A DNA stretch of 64,000 nt from a virus. Location of the stretch: positions 64,001-128,000 of the IMG/VR virus record IMGVR_UViG_3300023174_000057. One strand, written 5' to 3'. The position numbers and the translations under genes are program-made. Shown here piece by piece: positions 1,318 to 48,926 of this stretch. Positions within the stretch are counted from its first letter, which is position 1, and every line of letters starts with the position of its first letter. Below the pieces are notes generated by a model. The model did not search any database and was not told the origin of the DNA. It worked only from the letters and a program-made list of their open reading frames with translations.

Positions 1318-1476
1318 ATGAAGACGCTTGGCTCCGCCCCCTTCGTGGTGGGCGGGTGGTACGGCTTCGATTCAAGGGCGGGTACCGCCGCCCGTTCGGT
1401 TGGGAACATCCCCTCTGGGCGGGGGAGCGATCTCGGTTTTCGGTGCTCTCTGCCCGCCCGTCCGCCACGGGCGTAA
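1318..1476 (+). CDS. Diverged FGE/CLec variable-region mini-protein (copy 0)
   Basis: GGGAG SD; VVGGW...AARS...PSGRGSDLGFRC matches the downstream cassettes. Confidence 0.6.
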   Translation: MKTLGSAPFVVGGWYGFDSRAGTAARSVGNIPSGRGSDLGFRCSLPARPPRA

Positions 1477-1484
1477 GTACCCGT

Positions 1485-1667
1485 ATGAACCCCCCTACCA
1501 AGCCCAAGCCCACGGACACCCGTTACCTCGTCGTTAGCGGCGGCGGTTGGGACAGCTTCGTTCCGTCTTGGGTGCCCGTCGCGTCTCGCGGCTCGAACGT
1601 GCCTGCGAACCGTTACTTCAGCTTGGGGTTTCGGTGCGCGTTGCGGGGAAGGGAACCCCGAGTATGA
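1485..1667 (+). CDS. DGR-VR-like FGE/CLec mini-protein cassette 1 (60 aa)
   Basis: MNPPTKPKPTDTRYLVVSGGGWDSFVPSWVPVASRGSNVPANRYFSLGFRCALRGREPRV. Confidence 0.8.
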   Translation: MNPPTKPKPTDTRYLVVSGGGWDSFVPSWVPVASRGSNVPANRYFSLGFRCALRGREPRV

Positions 1668-1834
1668 ACCCCCCCACCACCAAGCCCACCGACACCGTCT
1701 TTCGCGGCGGCTGTTGGAACTTCAGCGGACCGTCGTGGGTGCGCGCCGCGTCTCGCAACGCGCTCGTGCCTGCTTACCGTGGCAGCGCCTTGGGGTTTCG
1801 GTGCGCGTTGCGGGGAAGGGAACCCCGAACGTGA
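1664..1834 (+). CDS. DGR-VR-like mini-protein cassette 2 (56 aa)
   Basis: ATGA overlap with cassette 1; VFRGGCWNFSGPSWVRAASRNALVPAYRGSALGFRCA. Confidence 0.8.
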   Translation: MNPPTTKPTDTVFRGGCWNFSGPSWVRAASRNALVPAYRGSALGFRCALRGREPRT

Positions 1835-2004
1835 AGCCCACCACCAAGCCCACCGCCGACACCCGTTACCTCGTCATCCGCGGCGGCAGTTGGAACATCC
1901 CGTGGTGGGTGAGCGCCGCGTCTCGCGGCACGCGCGTGCCTGCGTTCCGTGTCTACCTCATCGGGTTTCGGTGCGCGTTGCGGGGAAGGGAACCCCGAGT
2001 ATGA
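1831..2004 (+). CDS. DGR-VR-like mini-protein cassette 3 (57 aa)
   Basis: GTGA overlap; VIRGGSWNIPWWVSAASRGTRVPAFRVYLIGFRCA. Confidence 0.8.
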   Translation: MKPTTKPTADTRYLVIRGGSWNIPWWVSAASRGTRVPAFRVYLIGFRCALRGREPRV

Positions 2005-2180
2005 ACCCCCCCACCACCAAGCCCTCCGACACCCTCCTCCGCGTCTTTCGAGGCGGCAGTTGGCTCCACAGCGTACCGTCGAGGGGGCGCGCCGCGTCTC
2101 GCGACACGGACGTGCCTGCGTACCGTCTCAACTACCTCGGTTTTCGGTGCGCCCTTCGGGGAAGGGAACCCCGAGTATGA
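2001..2180 (+). CDS. DGR-VR-like mini-protein cassette 4 (59 aa)
   Basis: ATGA overlap; RVFRGGSWLHSVPSRGRAASRDTDVPAYRLNYLGFRCA. Confidence 0.8.
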   Translation: MNPPTTKPSDTLLRVFRGGSWLHSVPSRGRAASRDTDVPAYRLNYLGFRCALRGREPRV

Positions 2181-2353
2181 ACCCTCCTACCAAGCCCTCC
2201 GACACCCGTCTCCGCGTCTACCGCGGCGGCGGTTGGAGCTTCAACGTGCCGTCGTGGGTGCGCGCCGCGTCTCGCAACGCGAACGGGCCTGCGTACCGTG
2301 GCAGCTTCATCGGGTTCCGGTGCGCGTTGCGGGCGAGGGAACCCCGAGTATGA
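2177..2353 (+). CDS. DGR-VR-like mini-protein cassette 5 (58 aa)
   Basis: ATGA overlap; RVYRGGGWSFNVPSWVRAASRNANGPAYRGSFIGFRCA. Confidence 0.8.
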   Translation: MNPPTKPSDTRLRVYRGGGWSFNVPSWVRAASRNANGPAYRGSFIGFRCALRAREPRV

Positions 2354-2556
2354 AGCCCCCTACCAAGCCCAAGCCCAAGCCCAAGCCCAAGCCCAAGCCC
2401 ACGGACACCCGTCTCCGCGTCTTCCGCGGCGGCAGTTGGATCAGCGACGTACCGTCGTGGGTGCGCGCCGCGTCTCGCAACGCGGACGAGCCTGCGTACC
2501 GTAACATCAACTTGGGGTTTCGGTGCGCGCTGCGGGGAAGGGAACCACGGGCGTAA
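2350..2556 (+). CDS. DGR-VR-like mini-protein cassette 6 (68 aa) with (AAGCCC)6 Lys-Pro microsatellite
   Basis: ATGA overlap; RVFRGGSWISDVPSWVRAASRNADEPAYRNINLGFRCA. Confidence 0.8.
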   Translation: MKPPTKPKPKPKPKPKPTDTRLRVFRGGSWISDVPSWVRAASRNADEPAYRNINLGFRCALRGREPRA

Positions 2557-2564
2557 GTACCTAT

Positions 2565-5501: not shown

Positions 5502-7334
5502 ATGACTCGACCCGTGACTGCCCTCTTCCAGCCCACCGTCATCCTCCTTGCAGAAATGTCTCTCGTCCCTCAAGGTCTCGATGACCTCGTGGAGTGGGTC
5601 GGGGACTACCGCCCGGAGTGCCTCCCCGGTGAGAGCCCCACGGGCATGGACCTGTTCCCCCACGGTGGTGCGCGCGACGACGGGGGTGTGCTCACGGGCA
5701 ATGAGCTCTTGGTCGAGCTCGCGGGCCGAAATTGTTATGACAAGGAGACCGAGGTACTCACGGAAACTGGGTGGGTGAAGTTCCCGGACCTCCCCCAAGG
5801 TGTGCCCATCGCCACGTACAACCAAGGTACCGGGATGGTCGAGTATCAAGTACCGACGGACTACATCCAGAAGAAGTACACCGGGGCGATGTATCGGGTG
5901 GATTCCCGGTCAGTCTCTCTTCGTGTGACCGAAGACCATGACATCTGGCATGGGGATCGGAGCCGCTGGTGGAGCTTCTCACCGGCTCGCGAGGTGGCTG
6001 GCCATTCCTACAGGCTCCTCCGTACGGCACCCTATGCAGGGGATGGGTTCGTGGAGCCCTTCTGGGAGGTTCCCACTGACAAGTCTCTGGCATGGGCTAC
6101 GTTTCTCGGGTATCTCGTGACCGAGGGTTATGTGTTCGACGGGCGCGGGAGGGGCACTGGATCAAGGGTCACTCTTTTCCAGAAGCCTGCGAAGGCAGGT
6201 CCCATTCTCGCGTGTCTGGCAGAACTGGGTTTCACCCCCCGTGTCCAGACCGATGCGCGGAATGGTGTTCTCCAGATCACTGTGGGGAACACCAAACTCG
6301 CACAGGCACTCCTCCCTTGGGCGGGGGTGCCGTCTCATCACAAGCGTCTCCCCAACCATGTTTTCAACTGGCCGATGGGTGTTCGGGCTGCGCTGGTCAA
6401 CGCCATGATGGCTGGTGATGGGACCGTCACCAATGGGCACCGGGTCTTCTACACGTCTTCACCGGGGCTCGCTGAAGACATGCAGCGCCTCATCACTCTC
6501 TCCGGGAAACCGGGGTCTCTGCACAACGTCCAGAGGGTGCAACGGGAGACCGGGTTCTCGTCGCGTCACCCGAGCTACACTGTTCGGGAGTGTGGACGGA
6601 ACGAAGTCACCATCAACAAGCACGGTGTGGCCCATGACGGGTGGGAGGAGACATCAGATGAGGATGTCTACTGCGTGACGGTGCCCAATCGAACCCTTCT
6701 CGTCCGCCGTGACCGGAAGGTGGTGGTGTGTGCAAATTGCTACCACTCCTACGGGGCCAAGGCGGGCAAGAAGTCCAACGCCCAGTACATCGCCCACACC
6801 CAGAGCGGGGCCGTCCCGCACCGCTCGATCATGTACCACGCCAAGATGACCTTCTTCGTCGGCGGCATCTCTCGGCGGGTCAGTCACGAGCTCATCCGCC
6901 ACTACGTCGGCGCGGACAGGTCCGAGGAAGGTTCACCGTCGCAGGAGTCCACCCGGTACACTCACCACCCGGGGCACTTCGTCGTCCCCCCGAAGATGGC
7001 CGAGGACGGTAACGCCGTGGAGCAGTTCATGGCGTCGATGAGCTCCGCGTACACCGCGTACCACGAGTACATCGAGCGGGAGGTCGAAGCCTATCGTGCG
7101 GCATCGGGCGAGGAGCCCAAGGGGCTGTCCCGCAAGCGCATCTATGAGGCGGCGGCGGGGTTGCTCCCGATGCAAGCTGCCACGTCCCTCGTCTGGACGG
7201 CGAACCCGGTGAGCCTCGCGAAGATGTTTTTGGAGCGTACGGACGAGAGCTCCGACGCGGAGTTCCGGCGTCTCGCCCTGCACTGGCAGAAGTTGTGTGT
7301 CGCCCGGTGGCCCAATCTGTTTCCGAGGGCGTAA
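5502..7334 (+). CDS. thyX: Flavin-dependent thymidylate synthase ThyX with intein
   Basis: Splicing restores AGRN|CYHSY; HRSIMYH, ISRRVSHELIRH, SQESTRY motifs. Confidence 0.9.
   Translation: MTRPVTALFQPTVILLAEMSLVPQGLDDLVEWVGDYRPECLPGESPTGMDLFPHGGARDDGGVLTGNELLVELAGRNCYDKETEVLTETGWVKFPDLPQGVPIATYNQGTGMVEYQVPTDYIQKKYTGAMYRVDSRSVSLRVTEDHDIWHGDRSRWWSFSPAREVAGHSYRLLRTAPYAGDGFVEPFWEVPTDKSLAWATFLGYLVTEGYVFDGRGRGTGSRVTLFQKPAKAGPILACLAELGFTPRVQTDARNGVLQITVGNTKLAQALLPWAGVPSHHKRLPNHVFNWPMGVRAALVNAMMAGDGTVTNGHRVFYTSSPGLAEDMQRLITLSGKPGSLHNVQRVQRETGFSSRHPSYTVRECGRNEVTINKHGVAHDGWEETSDEDVYCVTVPNRTLLVRRDRKVVVCANCYHSYGAKAGKKSNAQYIAHTQSGAVPHRSIMYHAKMTFFVGGISRRVSHELIRHYVGADRSEEGSPSQESTRYTHHPGHFVVPPKMAEDGNAVEQFMASMSSAYTAYHEYIEREVEAYRAASGEEPKGLSRKRIYEAAAGLLPMQAATSLVWTANPVSLAKMFLERTDESSDAEFRRLALHWQKLCVARWPNLFPRA
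5733..6737 (+). mobile_element. Intein (335 aa) with LAGLIDADG homing endonuclease in ThyX
   Basis: CYDKETEVLT block A; VTEDH block B; LGYLVTEG and NAMMAGDG; VYCVTVPN...VVCAN|C end. Confidence 0.9.
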
Positions 7335-8204: not shown

Positions 8205-8287
8205 GGACGGGTGCCCGAGCGGCCAAAGGGAGCAGACTGTAAATCTGCCGGTTCACGCCTACGTTGGTTCAAATCCAACTCCGTCCA
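8205..8287 (+). tRNA. tRNA-Tyr (GTA)
   Basis: Acceptor GGACGGG/TCCGTCC-A; anticodon arm GCAGA-CTGTAAA-TCTGC; long variable arm; T arm GTTGG-TTCAAAT-CCAAC; followed by CCG, so CCA is not fully encoded. Confidence 0.93.
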
Positions 8288-8349
8288 CCGCCCGGTACAG
8301 GGACCACCGGGCACCCCCACACTCGGTCCCAGCACACACGGAGACACAC

Positions 8350-19361: not shown

Positions 19362-22300
19362 ATGACTCTCGGCAACCTCGTCCTCTCTGGTGCCCGCGCC
19401 GTCGCCCCCGTGGGCAAAGTCCCGATCACGGCGAACATCATCGAGTTCGTCGAGGAGCCGTGGGGGCTGGGGATGCAGTTGTTCCCGATCCAGAAGATCA
19501 TCCTCAAAGCTCACTACGGCCTCCCGCTGGACGACACGCAGACCTTCACGGTGACTGATTGGCGGCGGCAGAACGCTCGCCAGATGACCGAGAAGGAGTA
19601 CCTCGCCTACCTGTACAGCGAGGGACGGTCGAACATCAAAGAGGTGGTGCCGGGGCACGAGCGCCGGGAGATGATTCTTTCCATCGGTCGCCGCAGCGGA
19701 AAGTGCGTGACGGGGGACACCCTCGTCCTCACCGACCGAGGCATTTACCCCATTGTAGAACTGGGCGACCCCAACGGTCCCGAGGTGCAGCCCCTCGCGG
19801 TGAGGGTGGCTCAAGAGGGCGGGGCGTCATCCACCTCTCGGTACTTCTACAACGGGGGCACGAAGCCCACCTACCGGATCACGTCTCACACGGGCGTGTC
19901 CGTGGAGGGTACGGGCAACCACCGGGTGAGGGTGCTGACTCCCGAGGGGGTCATTGACTGGAAGCACTTGGCGGACATCTGTCCGGGTGACGTTCTGGCA
20001 GTCCACCGTTCTACGAACCTCTGGGCTTCCGACCTCGTGGACGTGCGGGCACACCACGTCCGCGCTGTGCGCCGAGGGGCTGTTGTTCAGCCCGACACGT
20101 TCGACGAGCAGTGGGGACTTCTCATGGGCTACTTGGTGGGGGACGGCTCGTGGACCAACCGCACGTCCCTCGCCATTACCGTCGAGCACCCCGAGACCCG
20201 CACCGAGGTCGAGTCCCTCTTTACCGAACTCTGCGGGAAGTGCTCGTTCACGCACGACAAGCGCACGGCCCGCACGGGTGCCGTGAGGGTGTCTGACAAA
20301 GCCCTTCGGGAGTTCATGCACCGTCTGGGTTTCGACTGGGGCTGCGGGTCCCACACCAAGAGAACTCCGTGGGTGGTGCTGCGCTCCCCACGTCCCGTCG
20401 TTCGTGCCTACCTCCAAGGGCTCTTTGAGACGGATGGCACGGTCACGTCGGGCGGGATGTCGGTCTCGTTCTGTTCCGCCTCCCGTGATCTCGCCCGCGA
20501 GACACAGGTGCTCCTGCTCAACTTCGGGGTGGTGTCCCGCCTGCGGGTGAAGCACAACCGCAAGCTGAACCGGGACTACTACGAGGTCACGATCCGAGGG
20601 CTGCGGTCTCGACGCACCTTCGCCCGCGAGATTGGGTTCCGTTCCCGCAAGAAGCAGGAGCCCTTGGAAGCCGGGTTGGTGGCTCCCGTCCGTGAGGGCG
20701 GTGATACCGAGTCCGTGCCGCACCAGACGGGGTGGGTCGCACGACTGTTGGCGTCCATTCCCAAGGCGTTCCCCGGCAAGGGTTGGCAGCGCAGCACTCT
20801 CCGGGCGATTCTCGGCAATGTATGCAAGCCGGGAAGCCGTGAGGACCTCACATACAGCCGCATCCGTGCGTTCATCCCTGTCGCGGAGGGTTTAGGCGCG
20901 GATTCCGTGGTACTGGACCACTTCCGCGAACTGTTGCGGACGGACTACTTCTTTGACCCCGTGGTGTCCGTCACGCCCGGTGAGGCACGGGTCTACGACC
21001 TCAACGTGCCCGAGGGTGAGAGCTTCGTTGCCAACGGGCTGACCAACCACAACACGACCCTGTCAGCGTGCATTGCCGCGTTTGAGGCATACAAGCTCAT
21101 TTCCAAGGGCGACCCGCAAGCGTACTACGGGCTCCCTCAGAGCAACATGATCCAACTGATCTCGGTCGCCACCGACAAAGATCAAGCGGGTCTGCTCTAC
21201 CAAGAGGTGTCCGGGCACTTCCGTAACTGCGCGTTCTTCGGCCCGTACACCGCGAACAACACGATGAGCTATGCGCGGTTCCAGACGCCCAAGGACGTGG
21301 AGCGGTACGGGGCCTACTCGGACGACCCCAGTGCGAAGGCCACTATCAAGGTCACCTTCCGTAGCTGTGTGGCGAAGGGGCTTCGTGGCGCGGGCAACAT
21401 CGTGGTCATTCTCGACGAGGTGGCGCACTTCACCGACGCGGGGCAGTCTTCCGCCGACGCGGTGTACAACGCCGTCGTCCCCAGCACGTCCGCGTACTCA
21501 CCAAAAGACCCCCTTGATCGTCGCAAGCCCATCGGACAGGTAGAGGGCCGGATCATCTTGATCTCCAGCCCCCTTGGCCGTCAGGGGTTGTTCTACAAGA
21601 TGTTCCAGATCGGCATGGGCGGCGGCATGGCGGCGAGCAATATGCTGTGCATCCAAGCGCCGACGTGGGAGGTGAACCCCACGGTCCCCGCCCACGAGTT
21701 TGAGAAGCACTACCTCAAGGACCAAGCGGTCTTCTTCACGGAGTACGGCGGGGAGTTCAGCGACCGCACCCGTGGGTGGATCGAGCGCGGCGAGGACCTC
21801 GTGGCGTGCGTCAATAAAGACGCTCGACCCCAGCAGCGTGGCATCCCTCGCACCCCGTATTTTCTGGGGCTCGACCTTGGGTTGGTGGGTGACGGCACGG
21901 CAGTGTCCATCGGGCATCTCGATCCCGAGGGGCACATCGTGGTGGACCTCGTGGACCAGATCAAAGCGGGCGTGGGGAAGTACCACACCAAAGAGCGCCT
22001 CGACTTCGACGACGTGGCCGATTGGATTCTGGATCTGTCCAAGCGGTTCTACATACAGGAGGGGATGTTCGACCAGTGGGCGGGCATCCCGCTGGAGCAA
22101 GCCCTCTCCAAGCGCGGGCTGGGCCAGATGAAGGCCCAGCAGATGACGAAACAACTCACGTCCCAGATGTTTCAGAACTTCAAGGACATGATGTGGGACA
22201 AGAAGCTCGTCCTGTACGACCACCCCATCGCGCAGAACGAAACCCACTGCCCGTACATCGCGGAGCTCCTTGAGCTACAGGCCCAGTACCACAGCAAGTT

Positions 22301-22559
22301 CGTGACGACCGTCGAAGCGCCCAACATCGACGGGAAGCACGATGACATGAGCGACGCTCTCGTCCGCATGGTGTGGCTGGCATCGAACCGTCTCTCCAAG
22401 AGCGCCCACCTCTCCGGGGCACAGCGCCAGCACGGCCCGGTAATCCCCGGATACGCCCGCATGGCTATGCGCGCAAAGCTGCTCCAGAGTGGGTCTCACG
22501 AGTCCCGACAGGTCCCTCGCCACGGCGCAGGAGGGGTGAAGCGATGGGTGTCCCGGTGA
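19362..22559 (+). CDS. terL: Terminase large subunit with intein
   Basis: LFPIQKIIL; Walker A GRRSGK|TT after splicing; Walker B VVILDEVAH; ISSP coupling motif; nuclease LGLDLG...HDDMSDA. Confidence 0.92.
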   Translation: MTLGNLVLSGARAVAPVGKVPITANIIEFVEEPWGLGMQLFPIQKIILKAHYGLPLDDTQTFTVTDWRRQNARQMTEKEYLAYLYSEGRSNIKEVVPGHERREMILSIGRRSGKCVTGDTLVLTDRGIYPIVELGDPNGPEVQPLAVRVAQEGGASSTSRYFYNGGTKPTYRITSHTGVSVEGTGNHRVRVLTPEGVIDWKHLADICPGDVLAVHRSTNLWASDLVDVRAHHVRAVRRGAVVQPDTFDEQWGLLMGYLVGDGSWTNRTSLAITVEHPETRTEVESLFTELCGKCSFTHDKRTARTGAVRVSDKALREFMHRLGFDWGCGSHTKRTPWVVLRSPRPVVRAYLQGLFETDGTVTSGGMSVSFCSASRDLARETQVLLLNFGVVSRLRVKHNRKLNRDYYEVTIRGLRSRRTFAREIGFRSRKKQEPLEAGLVAPVREGGDTESVPHQTGWVARLLASIPKAFPGKGWQRSTLRAILGNVCKPGSREDLTYSRIRAFIPVAEGLGADSVVLDHFRELLRTDYFFDPVVSVTPGEARVYDLNVPEGESFVANGLTNHNTTLSACIAAFEAYKLISKGDPQAYYGLPQSNMIQLISVATDKDQAGLLYQEVSGHFRNCAFFGPYTANNTMSYARFQTPKDVERYGAYSDDPSAKATIKVTFRSCVAKGLRGAGNIVVILDEVAHFTDAGQSSADAVYNAVVPSTSAYSPKDPLDRRKPIGQVEGRIILISSPLGRQGLFYKMFQIGMGGGMAASNMLCIQAPTWEVNPTVPAHEFEKHYLKDQAVFFTEYGGEFSDRTRGWIERGEDLVACVNKDARPQQRGIPRTPYFLGLDLGLVGDGTAVSIGHLDPEGHIVVDLVDQIKAGVGKYHTKERLDFDDVADWILDLSKRFYIQEGMFDQWAGIPLEQALSKRGLGQMKAQQMTKQLTSQMFQNFKDMMWDKKLVLYDHPIAQNETHCPYIAELLELQAQYHSKFVTTVEAPNIDGKHDDMSDALVRMVWLASNRLSKSAHLSGAQRQHGPVIPGYARMAMRAKLLQSGSHESRQVPRHGAGGVKRWVSR
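19704..21053 (+). mobile_element. Intein (450 aa) with LAGLIDADG endonuclease inserted in terminase Walker A
   Basis: CVTGDTLVLT...GTGNH...MGYLVGDG...LQGLFETDG...VYDLNVPEGESFVANGLTNHN|T. Confidence 0.93.
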
Positions 22560-46466: not shown

Positions 46467-48926
46467 ATGGCCTCGATTCAGTACAACAAGATCCTCGCAG
46501 TTCCCTCTTCGGGCCTCAAGAACCCGGCGGCTCCCAAGGCCGTTGACAGCCTCGCCCTGTCTCTCGCTGAGACGAGCATTCAGCTCGGCGCGAGCGGCTT
46601 CTTCAAGCTGCTCGACAGCGCGGGCGACAGCCTCCTCAACGCCCAGAACTCGGCCATCTCGTTCGCCCCGGACGCGAGCTTCTCGCAGGACCTCACGGTC
46701 AGCGGCGACACCATCCTCGCGGCCCTCTCGGCCACGAACGCCTCGTTCTCGGGCACGCTCGGCGTGACCGGGGCGTCCACCCTCGGCGTGCTCCACGCGG
46801 GCGCGACGGACGTGGACAGCCTCTCGGTGGACGTGGACGCCTCGGTGGGCGGCGAGCTCACGGTCAGCGGCGACTCGAACCTCGCGGACCTGTACGCGGC
46901 GGCGGCTTCGTTCTCGGGTGACGTGTCCGTCTCGGGCAACCTGACGGTCAACGGCAAGGTCACCACGATCAACTCGGACCAGATCATGGTCCACGATCCG
47001 ATCATGGTGCTGGCCGACGGCAACACGGCGGACACCTTCGACATCGGTTTCGTGGGCAAGCGCAAGAACGGCGCGGCCTTCGAGAACGTGTCGTTCTTCT
47101 ACGACCAGTCGGCGGGCGAGTTCGCCGTCGCCAACGTCGGCACGACCTACGGTCAGGACGGCAGCAACAACTACCAGTCCCTCACCGTGGCGTCCTACAT
47201 GGACCTCCACATCGCGGACCTCGCTGCGGCCAGCGCGGACTTCTCTGCGAACGTGGCGATCTCGGGCACCCTCTCGGCGGGCAACACCACCGTTGCCGAC
47301 CTGACGGCTGAGGACGGCACGTTCTCGGGCGACATCGCAGCGGTCAACGCGACCCTCTCGGGCAACATCTCCGCGGTGGACGGCACGTTCTCGGGCGACA
47401 TCTCGGCGGACGACATCTCGGCGGCGACGGCGACCCTCTCGGGTGCCCTCTCGGCGGCTTCGGCCTCGATCTCTGGCGCGGCCACCATCGGCTCTACGCT
47501 CGACGTGACGGGTGCCCTCTCGGCGGCTTCGGCCAGCATCACGGGCGCGATGTCTTCGGGCTCCGTCTCGACGGGGAACATCAGCGCCACGGGCTCGGCC
47601 ACCGTTGCCGGTGCGCTCTCGGCGGGCGCGACGGACGTGGACAGCCTCGCCGTGGACGGCAACGCCTCGGTGGGTGGGAACATCACCGCCGTCGATGCGA
47701 CCCTCTCGGGTGACCTCGCCGCCGTGGACGCGGCCCTCTCGGGCGACCTCTCGGCGGTTGACGCCACCCTCTCGGGTGACCTCGCCGCCGTGGACGGCAC
47801 GTTCTCGGGCAACCTCGCCGCTGTGGATGCGACCCTCTCGGGTGACCTCGCTGCGGTGGACGCCACCCTCTCGGGCGACCTCGCCGCCGTCGATGCGACC
47901 CTCTCGGGTGACCTCTCGGCTGTGGACGCGGCCCTCTCGGGCAACGCCACCATCGCGGGTACGCTCGGCGTGACGGGAGCCCTCTCGGGCTCTTCGGCCT
48001 CGTTCAGCGCCAACATCGCTGCGGTTGACGCCACCCTCTCGGGCGACCTCGCTGCGGTTGACGCCACCCTCTCGGGCGACCTCACGGTCGCGGGTGCGGC
48101 GGACCTCGACGCCCTCACCGCTTCGGGCGCGGTTCACTTCACGGCGACTGACGATGTCCTCTCCATCACCATCCCCGCGATGGCGGTCACCGAGAACTAC
48201 GCTCTCGAAGTCGAGGGCGGCGTCCACATGGACGGCCACCTCTACCTCGCCAAGACGGGCGGCTCGCTCAACCTGAGCAGTTCTCCCGTCACCCCCGACT
48301 TCATGGTCGATGGCAAGTCGGTCTTCGCCGCGCGTCTGCAATCGGGCTCGGCGTCGAACCCCGACTTCATGGTGAACGGTCACGCCCGGTTCAACTCGGG
48401 CTTCGCGGTGGACAGCGAGGAAGTGGCCTCGATCCGCGTCGGCAACGTGGCGGGCGACGCCATCTCGTTCTCGACGGGCACGGACGGCCACATCCACCTC
48501 GACGCTGCCAAGATCCTCCGTCTCTCGGCGGATCAGGGCATCGCGACGAACCACACCGCGAACGCCTCGGGCGCGGTGGCGGCGAACCTCGCCGTCTCGG
48601 TCAACGCCACGGGGGACTTCGTCGCCGTGCGCGCCAACGAGAAGAACGCCATCGTCCTCGGCGTGTCGCTCGCCAGCATCGCTGGTGCGTCGTCGGCCAA
48701 GGGCAAGGTTGCCGAGTTCGGCAAGGTGGAGATCGCCGTCGAAGGCGGGGCCAGCATCGCCATTGGCGACCTCCTGTACCTGTCGGCCAGCGAGGCGGGC
48801 AAGGTCACGAACGTCGTCCCGGTTGACGCGGACAGCACCGCGTACCTCATGGGCAAGGCCCTCCAAGCCCCCGTCGCGGGCAAGGTCAGCATCGCGCTGC
48901 ACCGCCAGTTCCTCTACAACAACTGA
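46467..48926 (+). CDS. Long fibre/whisker-like virion protein with 11-aa tandem repeats
   Basis: (AVDATLSGDLA)n; VSGNLTVNG; C-terminal GDLLYLS..AGKVT domain. Confidence 0.75.
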   Translation: MASIQYNKILAVPSSGLKNPAAPKAVDSLALSLAETSIQLGASGFFKLLDSAGDSLLNAQNSAISFAPDASFSQDLTVSGDTILAALSATNASFSGTLGVTGASTLGVLHAGATDVDSLSVDVDASVGGELTVSGDSNLADLYAAAASFSGDVSVSGNLTVNGKVTTINSDQIMVHDPIMVLADGNTADTFDIGFVGKRKNGAAFENVSFFYDQSAGEFAVANVGTTYGQDGSNNYQSLTVASYMDLHIADLAAASADFSANVAISGTLSAGNTTVADLTAEDGTFSGDIAAVNATLSGNISAVDGTFSGDISADDISAATATLSGALSAASASISGAATIGSTLDVTGALSAASASITGAMSSGSVSTGNISATGSATVAGALSAGATDVDSLAVDGNASVGGNITAVDATLSGDLAAVDAALSGDLSAVDATLSGDLAAVDGTFSGNLAAVDATLSGDLAAVDATLSGDLAAVDATLSGDLSAVDAALSGNATIAGTLGVTGALSGSSASFSANIAAVDATLSGDLAAVDATLSGDLTVAGAADLDALTASGAVHFTATDDVLSITIPAMAVTENYALEVEGGVHMDGHLYLAKTGGSLNLSSSPVTPDFMVDGKSVFAARLQSGSASNPDFMVNGHARFNSGFAVDSEEVASIRVGNVAGDAISFSTGTDGHIHLDAAKILRLSADQGIATNHTANASGAVAANLAVSVNATGDFVAVRANEKNAIVLGVSLASIAGASSAKGKVAEFGKVEIAVEGGASIAIGDLLYLSASEAGKVTNVVPVDADSTAYLMGKALQAPVAGKVSIALHRQFLYNN
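47688..47945 (+). repeat. 33-bp in-frame tandem repeats in the fibre gene
   Basis: Repeated GTSGAYGCSACCCTCTCGGGYGACCTCGCNGCN units; more copies near 47300-47400 and 48020-48080. Confidence 0.85.

Follow-up and report, generated by a model that had tools for sequence, protein, structure and literature searches.

Why does a phage genome carry a row of very small genes, each resembling only the variable end of a target of a diversity-generating retroelement (DGR)? We addressed this question for positions 1318-2556 of the window, i.e. the whole 64,000-nucleotide stretch analysed here, which comprises bases 64001-128000 of a linear virus record (G000) of 166,764 nt with an estimated completeness of 39%. 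Because the record encodes a terminase, a portal protein and major head proteins, we assign it to a tailed jumbo phage, which is of freshwater origin. The original prediction described the array as variable-region (VR) genes with an adenine-mutagenesis signature, and offered three readings: (a) an archive of DGR products that recombine into a full-length receptor-binding gene, (b) peptides that complete a truncated C-type-lectin (CLec) scaffold in trans, and (c) targets of a remote or host DGR. It also reported that the window contains no reverse transcriptase (RT), Avd or template repeat (TR). This holds, and neither an RT nor a TR was found in the entire 167-kb record (39% complete).

Variable-region mini-genes and their adenine signature

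Six ORFs on the plus strand form the main block of the array at the coordinates originally given, and ATGA/GTGA overlaps link them: mini-gene 1 (1485..1667, 60 aa, core at 1536-1637), mini-gene 2 (1664..1834, 56 aa), mini-gene 3 (1831..2004, 57 aa, with a GTG start and a two-codon deletion), mini-gene 4 (2001..2180, 59 aa), mini-gene 5 (2177..2353, 58 aa) and mini-gene 6 (2350..2556, 68 aa, with an expanded Lys-Pro stalk). A diverged, old VR mini-gene of 52 aa precedes them on the same strand (1318..1476), and two plus-strand copies of a 17-bp direct repeat mark the left (1465..1481) and right (2545..2561) edges of the six-gene block. As had been proposed, the rest of the CLec domain is missing: matches of the six to the Pfam FGE-sulfatase profile (PF03781) are limited to its final ~45-60 of 255 positions, and none of the six has its VR inside a complete CLec or Ig domain as a canonical DGR target does. 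In the whole record, 16 mini-genes are spread over four loci, i.e. the seven copies in the window (1318-2556, plus strand), three copies behind the scaffold gene described below (G000:9056-9566), four old copies (G000:3426-4058) and two further copies (G000:34973-35304). These loci sit among small genes, away from the terminase, portal and capsid genes, and no promoter-like site was found near the window array. The core of mini-gene 2 is identical (0/102 mismatches) to a copy 56 kb away behind the scaffold gene (G000:9226-9393), and identical cores at this distance imply that cassettes are also copied as DNA.

An assembly artefact that concatenates population variants of a single VR, as feared in the original prediction, is ruled out because related phages from other samples have arrays of their own. 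Specifically, a close relative carries different cassettes at the same site, and a 392-kb relative carries more than 20 mini-genes within 10 kb. The contig of the close relative with the different array (L128, RGPS01000530.1) has been binned into a Terriglobia MAG.

Within the 102-nt core of the six copies, adenine occurs in none of the 64 invariant columns (p = 4e-6), all 28 adenine-containing columns vary, minority letters at codon positions 1, 2 and 3 number 37, 33 and 11, respectively, and pN/pS is 2.26. In the nine AAC-type columns, C is the last letter of every codon, as had been stated, the correct number of codons being 52 rather than 53. Together with the comparison to a TR described below, these columns bear out the proposed mutagenesis signature far beyond chance.

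A matching template in a cellular DGR

In a pattern-based scan of bacterial genomes, the TR was located behind an RT of the MAG KT_bin-2017. Thus, a TR beside a DGR-type RT is present in a bacterium and not in the phage record, and nearly every letter of the template that had been reconstructed from the window recurs in a cellular DGR. The RT of KT_bin-2017 has the YMDD motif together with the DGR motif LGxxxSQ, and bAvd lies upstream of a 97%-identical RT; an Avd gene beside the RT was found for the cellular element only. A full-length FGE target is encoded on the TR-bearing contig, a caspase-FGE target on a plainly cellular contig, and a kinase-FGE target in a relative; several relatives of KT_bin-2017 have related sets of TR, RT and target. 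The named relatives of the RT are from Polyangiales, Polyangiaceae and Sandaracinaceae and the TR-bearing MAG appears to be a Polyangiales-like bacterium. This MAG also contains a second RT end and TR start (L150:5700-6237), and it probably holds two related DGR copies. A metagenome scan for the TR returned only phage VR copies.

Compared to the cellular TR, the six copies in the window differ at 81 of 140 adenines and at 16 of 484 other bases (odds ratio 40, p = 1e-46); the mismatches fall on TR adenines, as predicted, and the VRs differ from the TR almost only there. In mini-genes 1 to 6, differences at adenines amount to 16/24, 16/24, 13/20, 13/24, 14/24 and 9/24, and those at non-adenines to 5/81, 2/81, 2/79, 5/81, 1/81 and 1/81. 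Four of the six agree with the TR at non-adenines to about the same extent as do the VRs of the bacterium itself, and the old mini-gene at 1318 differs at 33/81 non-adenines. Substitutions at TR adenines follow the order T>G>C, which is also the order for the BPP-1 bRT in vitro (PMC7826257). Taking this phage and related phage contigs together, 35 cassettes deviate by at most 10% from one TR at non-adenine sites, two of them without any difference, and the scaffolds of the phages matching this one TR have identities down to 50%. A second cellular TR class is matched by three further cassettes, and both classes occur in one phage. Among 25 fresh cassettes, the adenine patterns are independent save for one duplicate pair (24 patterns). 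Different alleles occur in close relatives, which may indirectly point to ongoing diversification. At the DNA level, the host locus resembles the phage only in the TR, and the 3' flank of the cassettes matches the host VR flank only in part. Target hairpins after the VR were not significant in phage or host flanks and were no better than in shuffled sequences.

The link between phage and bacterium is indirect, and we infer the identity of the host from the TR identity and from the similarity of a tRNA. This phage tRNA-Tyr (window 8205..8289, plus strand), which lies outside the system itself, is 93% identical to that of the TR-bearing MAG and 91-95% identical to those of the best-matching relatives of this MAG, compared to values down to ~82% in other relatives searched, and would provide weak but independent evidence of the host. 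In the one 17-kb stretch searched, neither a spacer nor a prophage linking phage and host was found.

Because TR and RT are cellular, reading (c) is supported in its version with a host DGR, and we consider it very likely that the diversity of the cassettes comes from a cellular DGR. It is unlikely that the phage instead has its own DGR, recently derived from a host and located in the 61% of the genome not represented in the record, with the cassettes as ordinary remote targets. The low completeness of the record leaves room for such an element, and phage DGRs with non-adjacent targets are known (PMC5758913); however, IMG/VR contains no exact match to the TR, and the nearest viral RT in it is only 45% identical to the relevant cellular RT. 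Moreover, four cassette-bearing records, one of them 90% complete, have no RT, and the same applies to 15 capsid relatives, four of which are at least 90% complete, although these 15 lack cassettes as well. Near-perfect matches to one TR in phages whose scaffolds are 50% identical, and matches to two cellular TR classes in a single phage, argue in the same direction.

We regard it as similarly improbable that the cassettes are snapshots, i.e. that ordinary recombination captured host VR DNA that was already mutated and that no DGR acted on phage DNA. Capture would be compatible with the RecA-like gene of the phage, with the copying of cassettes as DNA that the identical pair illustrates, and with the host VR 3' flank being shared past the TR match by some related phages. 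By contrast, the 24 independent adenine patterns argue against snapshots, and over positions -15 to -10 the agreement of fresh cassettes is 70-74/144 with the TR and 23-47/144 with the two host VRs, a weak comparison that is confounded by the inherited frame. The RecA-like recombinase gene (G000:53273-54073, L235) is a candidate for cDNA uptake or cassette conversion, and no RecT-type annealing protein was found in the record. Our working hypothesis is that the cassettes are written by a cellular DGR, for which an engineered precedent exists in that DGR cDNA made in an infected cell diversifies lytic lambda (10.1101/2025.03.24.644984). We infer that cDNA would be transferred during infection: a chromosomal Avd-RT-TR element of the host would make adenine-mutagenised cDNA, and this would recombine into the phage cassettes.

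A truncated scaffold gene and its fit to the peptides

If the mini-genes encode only the end of a CLec domain, an FGE-domain ORF without its C-terminal segment might exist elsewhere. Such an ORF is present in one copy on the minus strand, 54 kb upstream of the window (G000:9566-10387; 273 aa). The encoded protein covers positions 14-194 of the FGE profile and ends five residues past the GNVWEW motif; the gene stops where the VR should begin, directly ahead of three mini-genes. By sequence and fold, this scaffold belongs to the FGE/TvpA type (PF03781; Foldseek matches to FGE, EgtB and TvpA, including PDB 2y3c). In the structural model, the FGE-type CLec domain is preceded by an N-terminal domain of ~95 aa, which is predicted with a pLDDT of 90 and reaches a best Z of 3.9 among PDB representatives, i.e. 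no clear match; it had no Foldseek match in BFVD and no Atlas feature match, which is not proof of a new fold. No transmembrane stretch was found on the scaffold.

Because 46 of the 48 best homologues of the scaffold end 5-12 residues past the GNVWEW motif (the other two lack a clean motif), the early stop is no lesion. None of these 48 proteins contains a VR, whereas nearly all homologues at greater distance have the full length. In a quick tree, the truncated proteins group on a single branch (SH-aLRT 99), and the contigs that encode them also bear mini-gene arrays. Because the scaffolds do not group with the DGR targets of the host in this quick tree, which has a long branch, a direct origin from these targets is unsupported. 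No full-length FGE gene was found in the record. A candidate for the unsplit ancestral state is the FGE gene of full length (L318; G106:610110-610907) in a capsid relative of 619 kb, which lacks cassettes. In one relative (L124:5568-10834), the scaffold gene adjoins a CobT/vWA gene and a gene for a MoxR-type AAA_5 ATPase, a neighbourhood that echoes host vWA-MoxR-CLec systems and may be incidental.

The same pairing occurs in an unrelated, AT-rich phage of 99 kb (IMGVR_UViG_3300013132_000033; 30% GC, 90% complete), in which a truncated FGE gene is followed by 12 VR mini-genes (L019:9788-12082). No RT was found in this phage at its completeness of 90%. GC amounts to 61-73% in the cores of its fresh mini-genes, and drift has brought the old mini-genes closer to the composition of the genome. 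Because its scaffold lies apart from the others in the tree, the sequences suggest an independent origin. No TR for this phage was found, nor were further phages of its type.

In line with what had been suggested as a check of reading (b), the scaffold was co-folded with the peptide of mini-gene 5. The predicted complex scored 0.77 compared to 0.02 for the best control, the mark used being reached by 58/80 solved pairs and 2/110 mismatched pairs. The contacts agree by 98% or more, the pLDDT of the partner is 75 or more, and the terminal GFRC strand of the peptide is modelled as buried in the scaffold. This modelling shows that the pieces fit and is not a measure of binding, because two parts of a known domain tend to pass owing to their resemblance to FGE structures already solved.

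Several features suggest that the mini-genes are translated. Neighbouring cassettes overlap by 4 nt in 53 of 58 cases, and a Shine-Dalgarno-like motif is present in the tail of the previous gene in 50 of 55 cassette pairs, compared to 17% at random sites. In mini-gene 1, this motif lies in the coding tail on the plus strand (1647..1654), 9 nt ahead of the next start, and it recurs in each tail. Old orthologous cassettes compared between phages have a pN/pS of 0.65 (p = 0.006). Third codon positions change most in the two orthologous pairs that have diverged furthest; we take this as moderate evidence for purifying selection on old cassettes, which comes mainly from these two pairs. Start coupling, ribosome sites, purifying selection and the co-fold all favour translated peptides that complete the scaffold. 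A truncated scaffold exists and is conserved, which supports reading (b), and we consider it likely that the peptides complete this scaffold in trans.

Production of a single protein by frameshift fusion of the scaffold to the first cassette is ruled out because the frame offset varies among phages, and is further disfavoured by a terminator-like hairpin between scaffold and first cassette in one phage.

We also considered that the peptides might not need the scaffold and might instead work as dominant-negative decoys on the host's FGE sensors, either by taking the place of the terminal strands of these sensors or by poisoning sensor assembly. In favour of this idea are the close resemblance of the cassettes to host VRs and the many arrays located far from the scaffold gene. 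It is highly improbable, however, in the face of a scaffold deletion that is exactly complementary to the peptides, conserved in the lineage and usually flanked by cassettes, and of the same pairing in an unrelated phage. Least convincing is reading (a), in which silent donors recombine into an expression gene to give a full-length receptor-binding protein: the tandem layout, the copying between loci and the direct repeats around the six-gene block are in keeping with a cassette archive, yet this is very unlikely indeed given that a full-length FGE gene is absent from the record and from the 48 closest homologues, that the cassettes have conserved starts, overlaps and ribosome sites and show purifying selection, and that the frame from scaffold to first cassette varies among phages.

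With a conserved truncated scaffold in the phage and both TR and RT in a bacterium, readings (b) and (c) are not alternatives. We assign a probability of roughly 0.6 to their combination, i.e. a two-part binder in which peptides complete a scaffold and a host DGR writes the variable codons. In this proposed two-part binding system of a myxobacterial (Polyangiales) jumbo phage, the constant scaffold would consist of the ~95-aa domain and an FGE-type CLec domain minus its last strands and ligand loops, and each of the coupled mini-genes would encode the missing strands and loops as a separate peptide of 45-68 aa. A peptide would dock and complete the fold of the scaffold in vivo, and many different binding sites could be formed at once per infection. 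Cassettes would multiply and spread via duplication and gene conversion; once a cassette is useful, its rewriting would end, and it would drift from the TR and be kept by selection.

Relation to known systems and possible function

The arrangement works like a set of DGR targets, yet it does not behave as a canonical target or as a silent-cassette system. In the vlsE/vls system of Borrelia, silent tandem variable cassettes exchange sequence in antigenic variation. The mini-genes share with vls the tandem variable cassettes that swap sequence, whereas here the cassettes appear to be translated and there is no full-length expression site. DGRec, from Rochette et al., is reportedly an engineered DGR system. 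As in our proposal, that system diversifies a lytic phage during infection by means of DGR cDNA that the cell produces (10.1101/2025.03.24.644984), but it is artificial and involves RecT; the present case would be its natural counterpart.

Among natural DGRs, the cellular ones of multicellular bacteria (Dore et al. 2024, PMC10907252) are alike in having an FGE/CLec VR, an AAC-rich TR and adenine-specific changes, as well as several targets per TR and action in trans within one genome. They are unlike the present system in that their VR terminates a full-length protein of the host and a single genome holds all parts, whereas here VR and scaffold are separate genes in a phage genome in which no RT or TR was found. 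The cellular DGR described above, with its caspase-FGE target and a kinase-FGE target in a relative, looks like a member of this group. The mtd-avd-TR-brt element of the Bordetella phage BPP-1 also has a phage-encoded CLec VR and the same mutation spectrum (PMC7826257), but it comprises an RT, a TR and an Avd of its own and diversifies a single tail-fibre gene, one allele at a time. In the present system, the VRs that exist side by side number up to dozens; they are not fused to a scaffold and are located among small non-structural genes. The TvpA paralogues of Treponema denticola (Wu et al. 2018, PMC5758913) likewise comprise several targets of an FGE-type fold far from the RT, but each of these targets is a full-length gene located in the same genome as the RT, and the survey of remote targets in that study expected none for phage-associated DGRs. 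In a survey of 224 jumbo phages, no domain of the FGE/CLec family was found (PMC7824862). The original prediction knew of no described architecture of this kind, and our literature search, mainly in freely available papers, returned neither a split CLec domain nor a host-templated phage VR. We conclude that the arrangement is real, conserved and unlike any described system found in the searchable literature.

If our main reading is true, this would be a case of natural cross-genome DGR action in which a virus draws on the hypermutation machinery of its host. It would also divide the CLec domain into a constant scaffold and an exchangeable variable peptide, which would remove the limit of known DGRs to one allele at a time. 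Because surveys of DGRs are anchored on RTs, such loci would all be missed. A swappable paratope of 50 aa on a fixed scaffold is a possible display platform. It would also become testable what FGE-type DGR targets do in multicellular bacteria, where their function is unproven: a phage that copies the binding tips of its host points to host-phage conflict and offers selected binders for finding ligands.

As to what the complexes bind, the odds seem about even that they act inside the cell against defence or signalling proteins of the host. We lean towards such a counter-defence or decoy role because the loci lie among small non-structural genes, the scaffold has no membrane stretch and the host has caspase-FGE and kinase-FGE targets. 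FGE proteins fused to caspases and kinases are of a kind proposed as immune sensors (PMC10907252), and the phage complexes are perhaps decoys, i.e. effector-less mimics of these caspase-FGE and kinase-FGE sensors. Receptor binding by the virion is the alternative to an intracellular role. An equal chance is given to the broader picture in which a lytic jumbo phage without a retroelement has a host immune-type DGR write a peptide library on one scaffold, yielding an antibody-like repertoire that is expressed at once and used against the host, and in which this split design arose twice, the second time in the unrelated AT-rich phage.

Three other features of the phage were observed. A shared N-terminal tag of ~25 aa is present on unrelated proteins at window positions 337, 3966, 59989 and 63740; a simple pattern counts 14 copies genome-wide, including about 10 sites beyond these four, and the tag is absent from the scaffold protein. 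Inteins with a LAGLIDADG endonuclease interrupt ThyX and the large terminase (window 5502-7334 and 19362-22559). Finally, an ORF of 819 aa (window 46467-48926) contains many repeats of 33 nt (11 aa).
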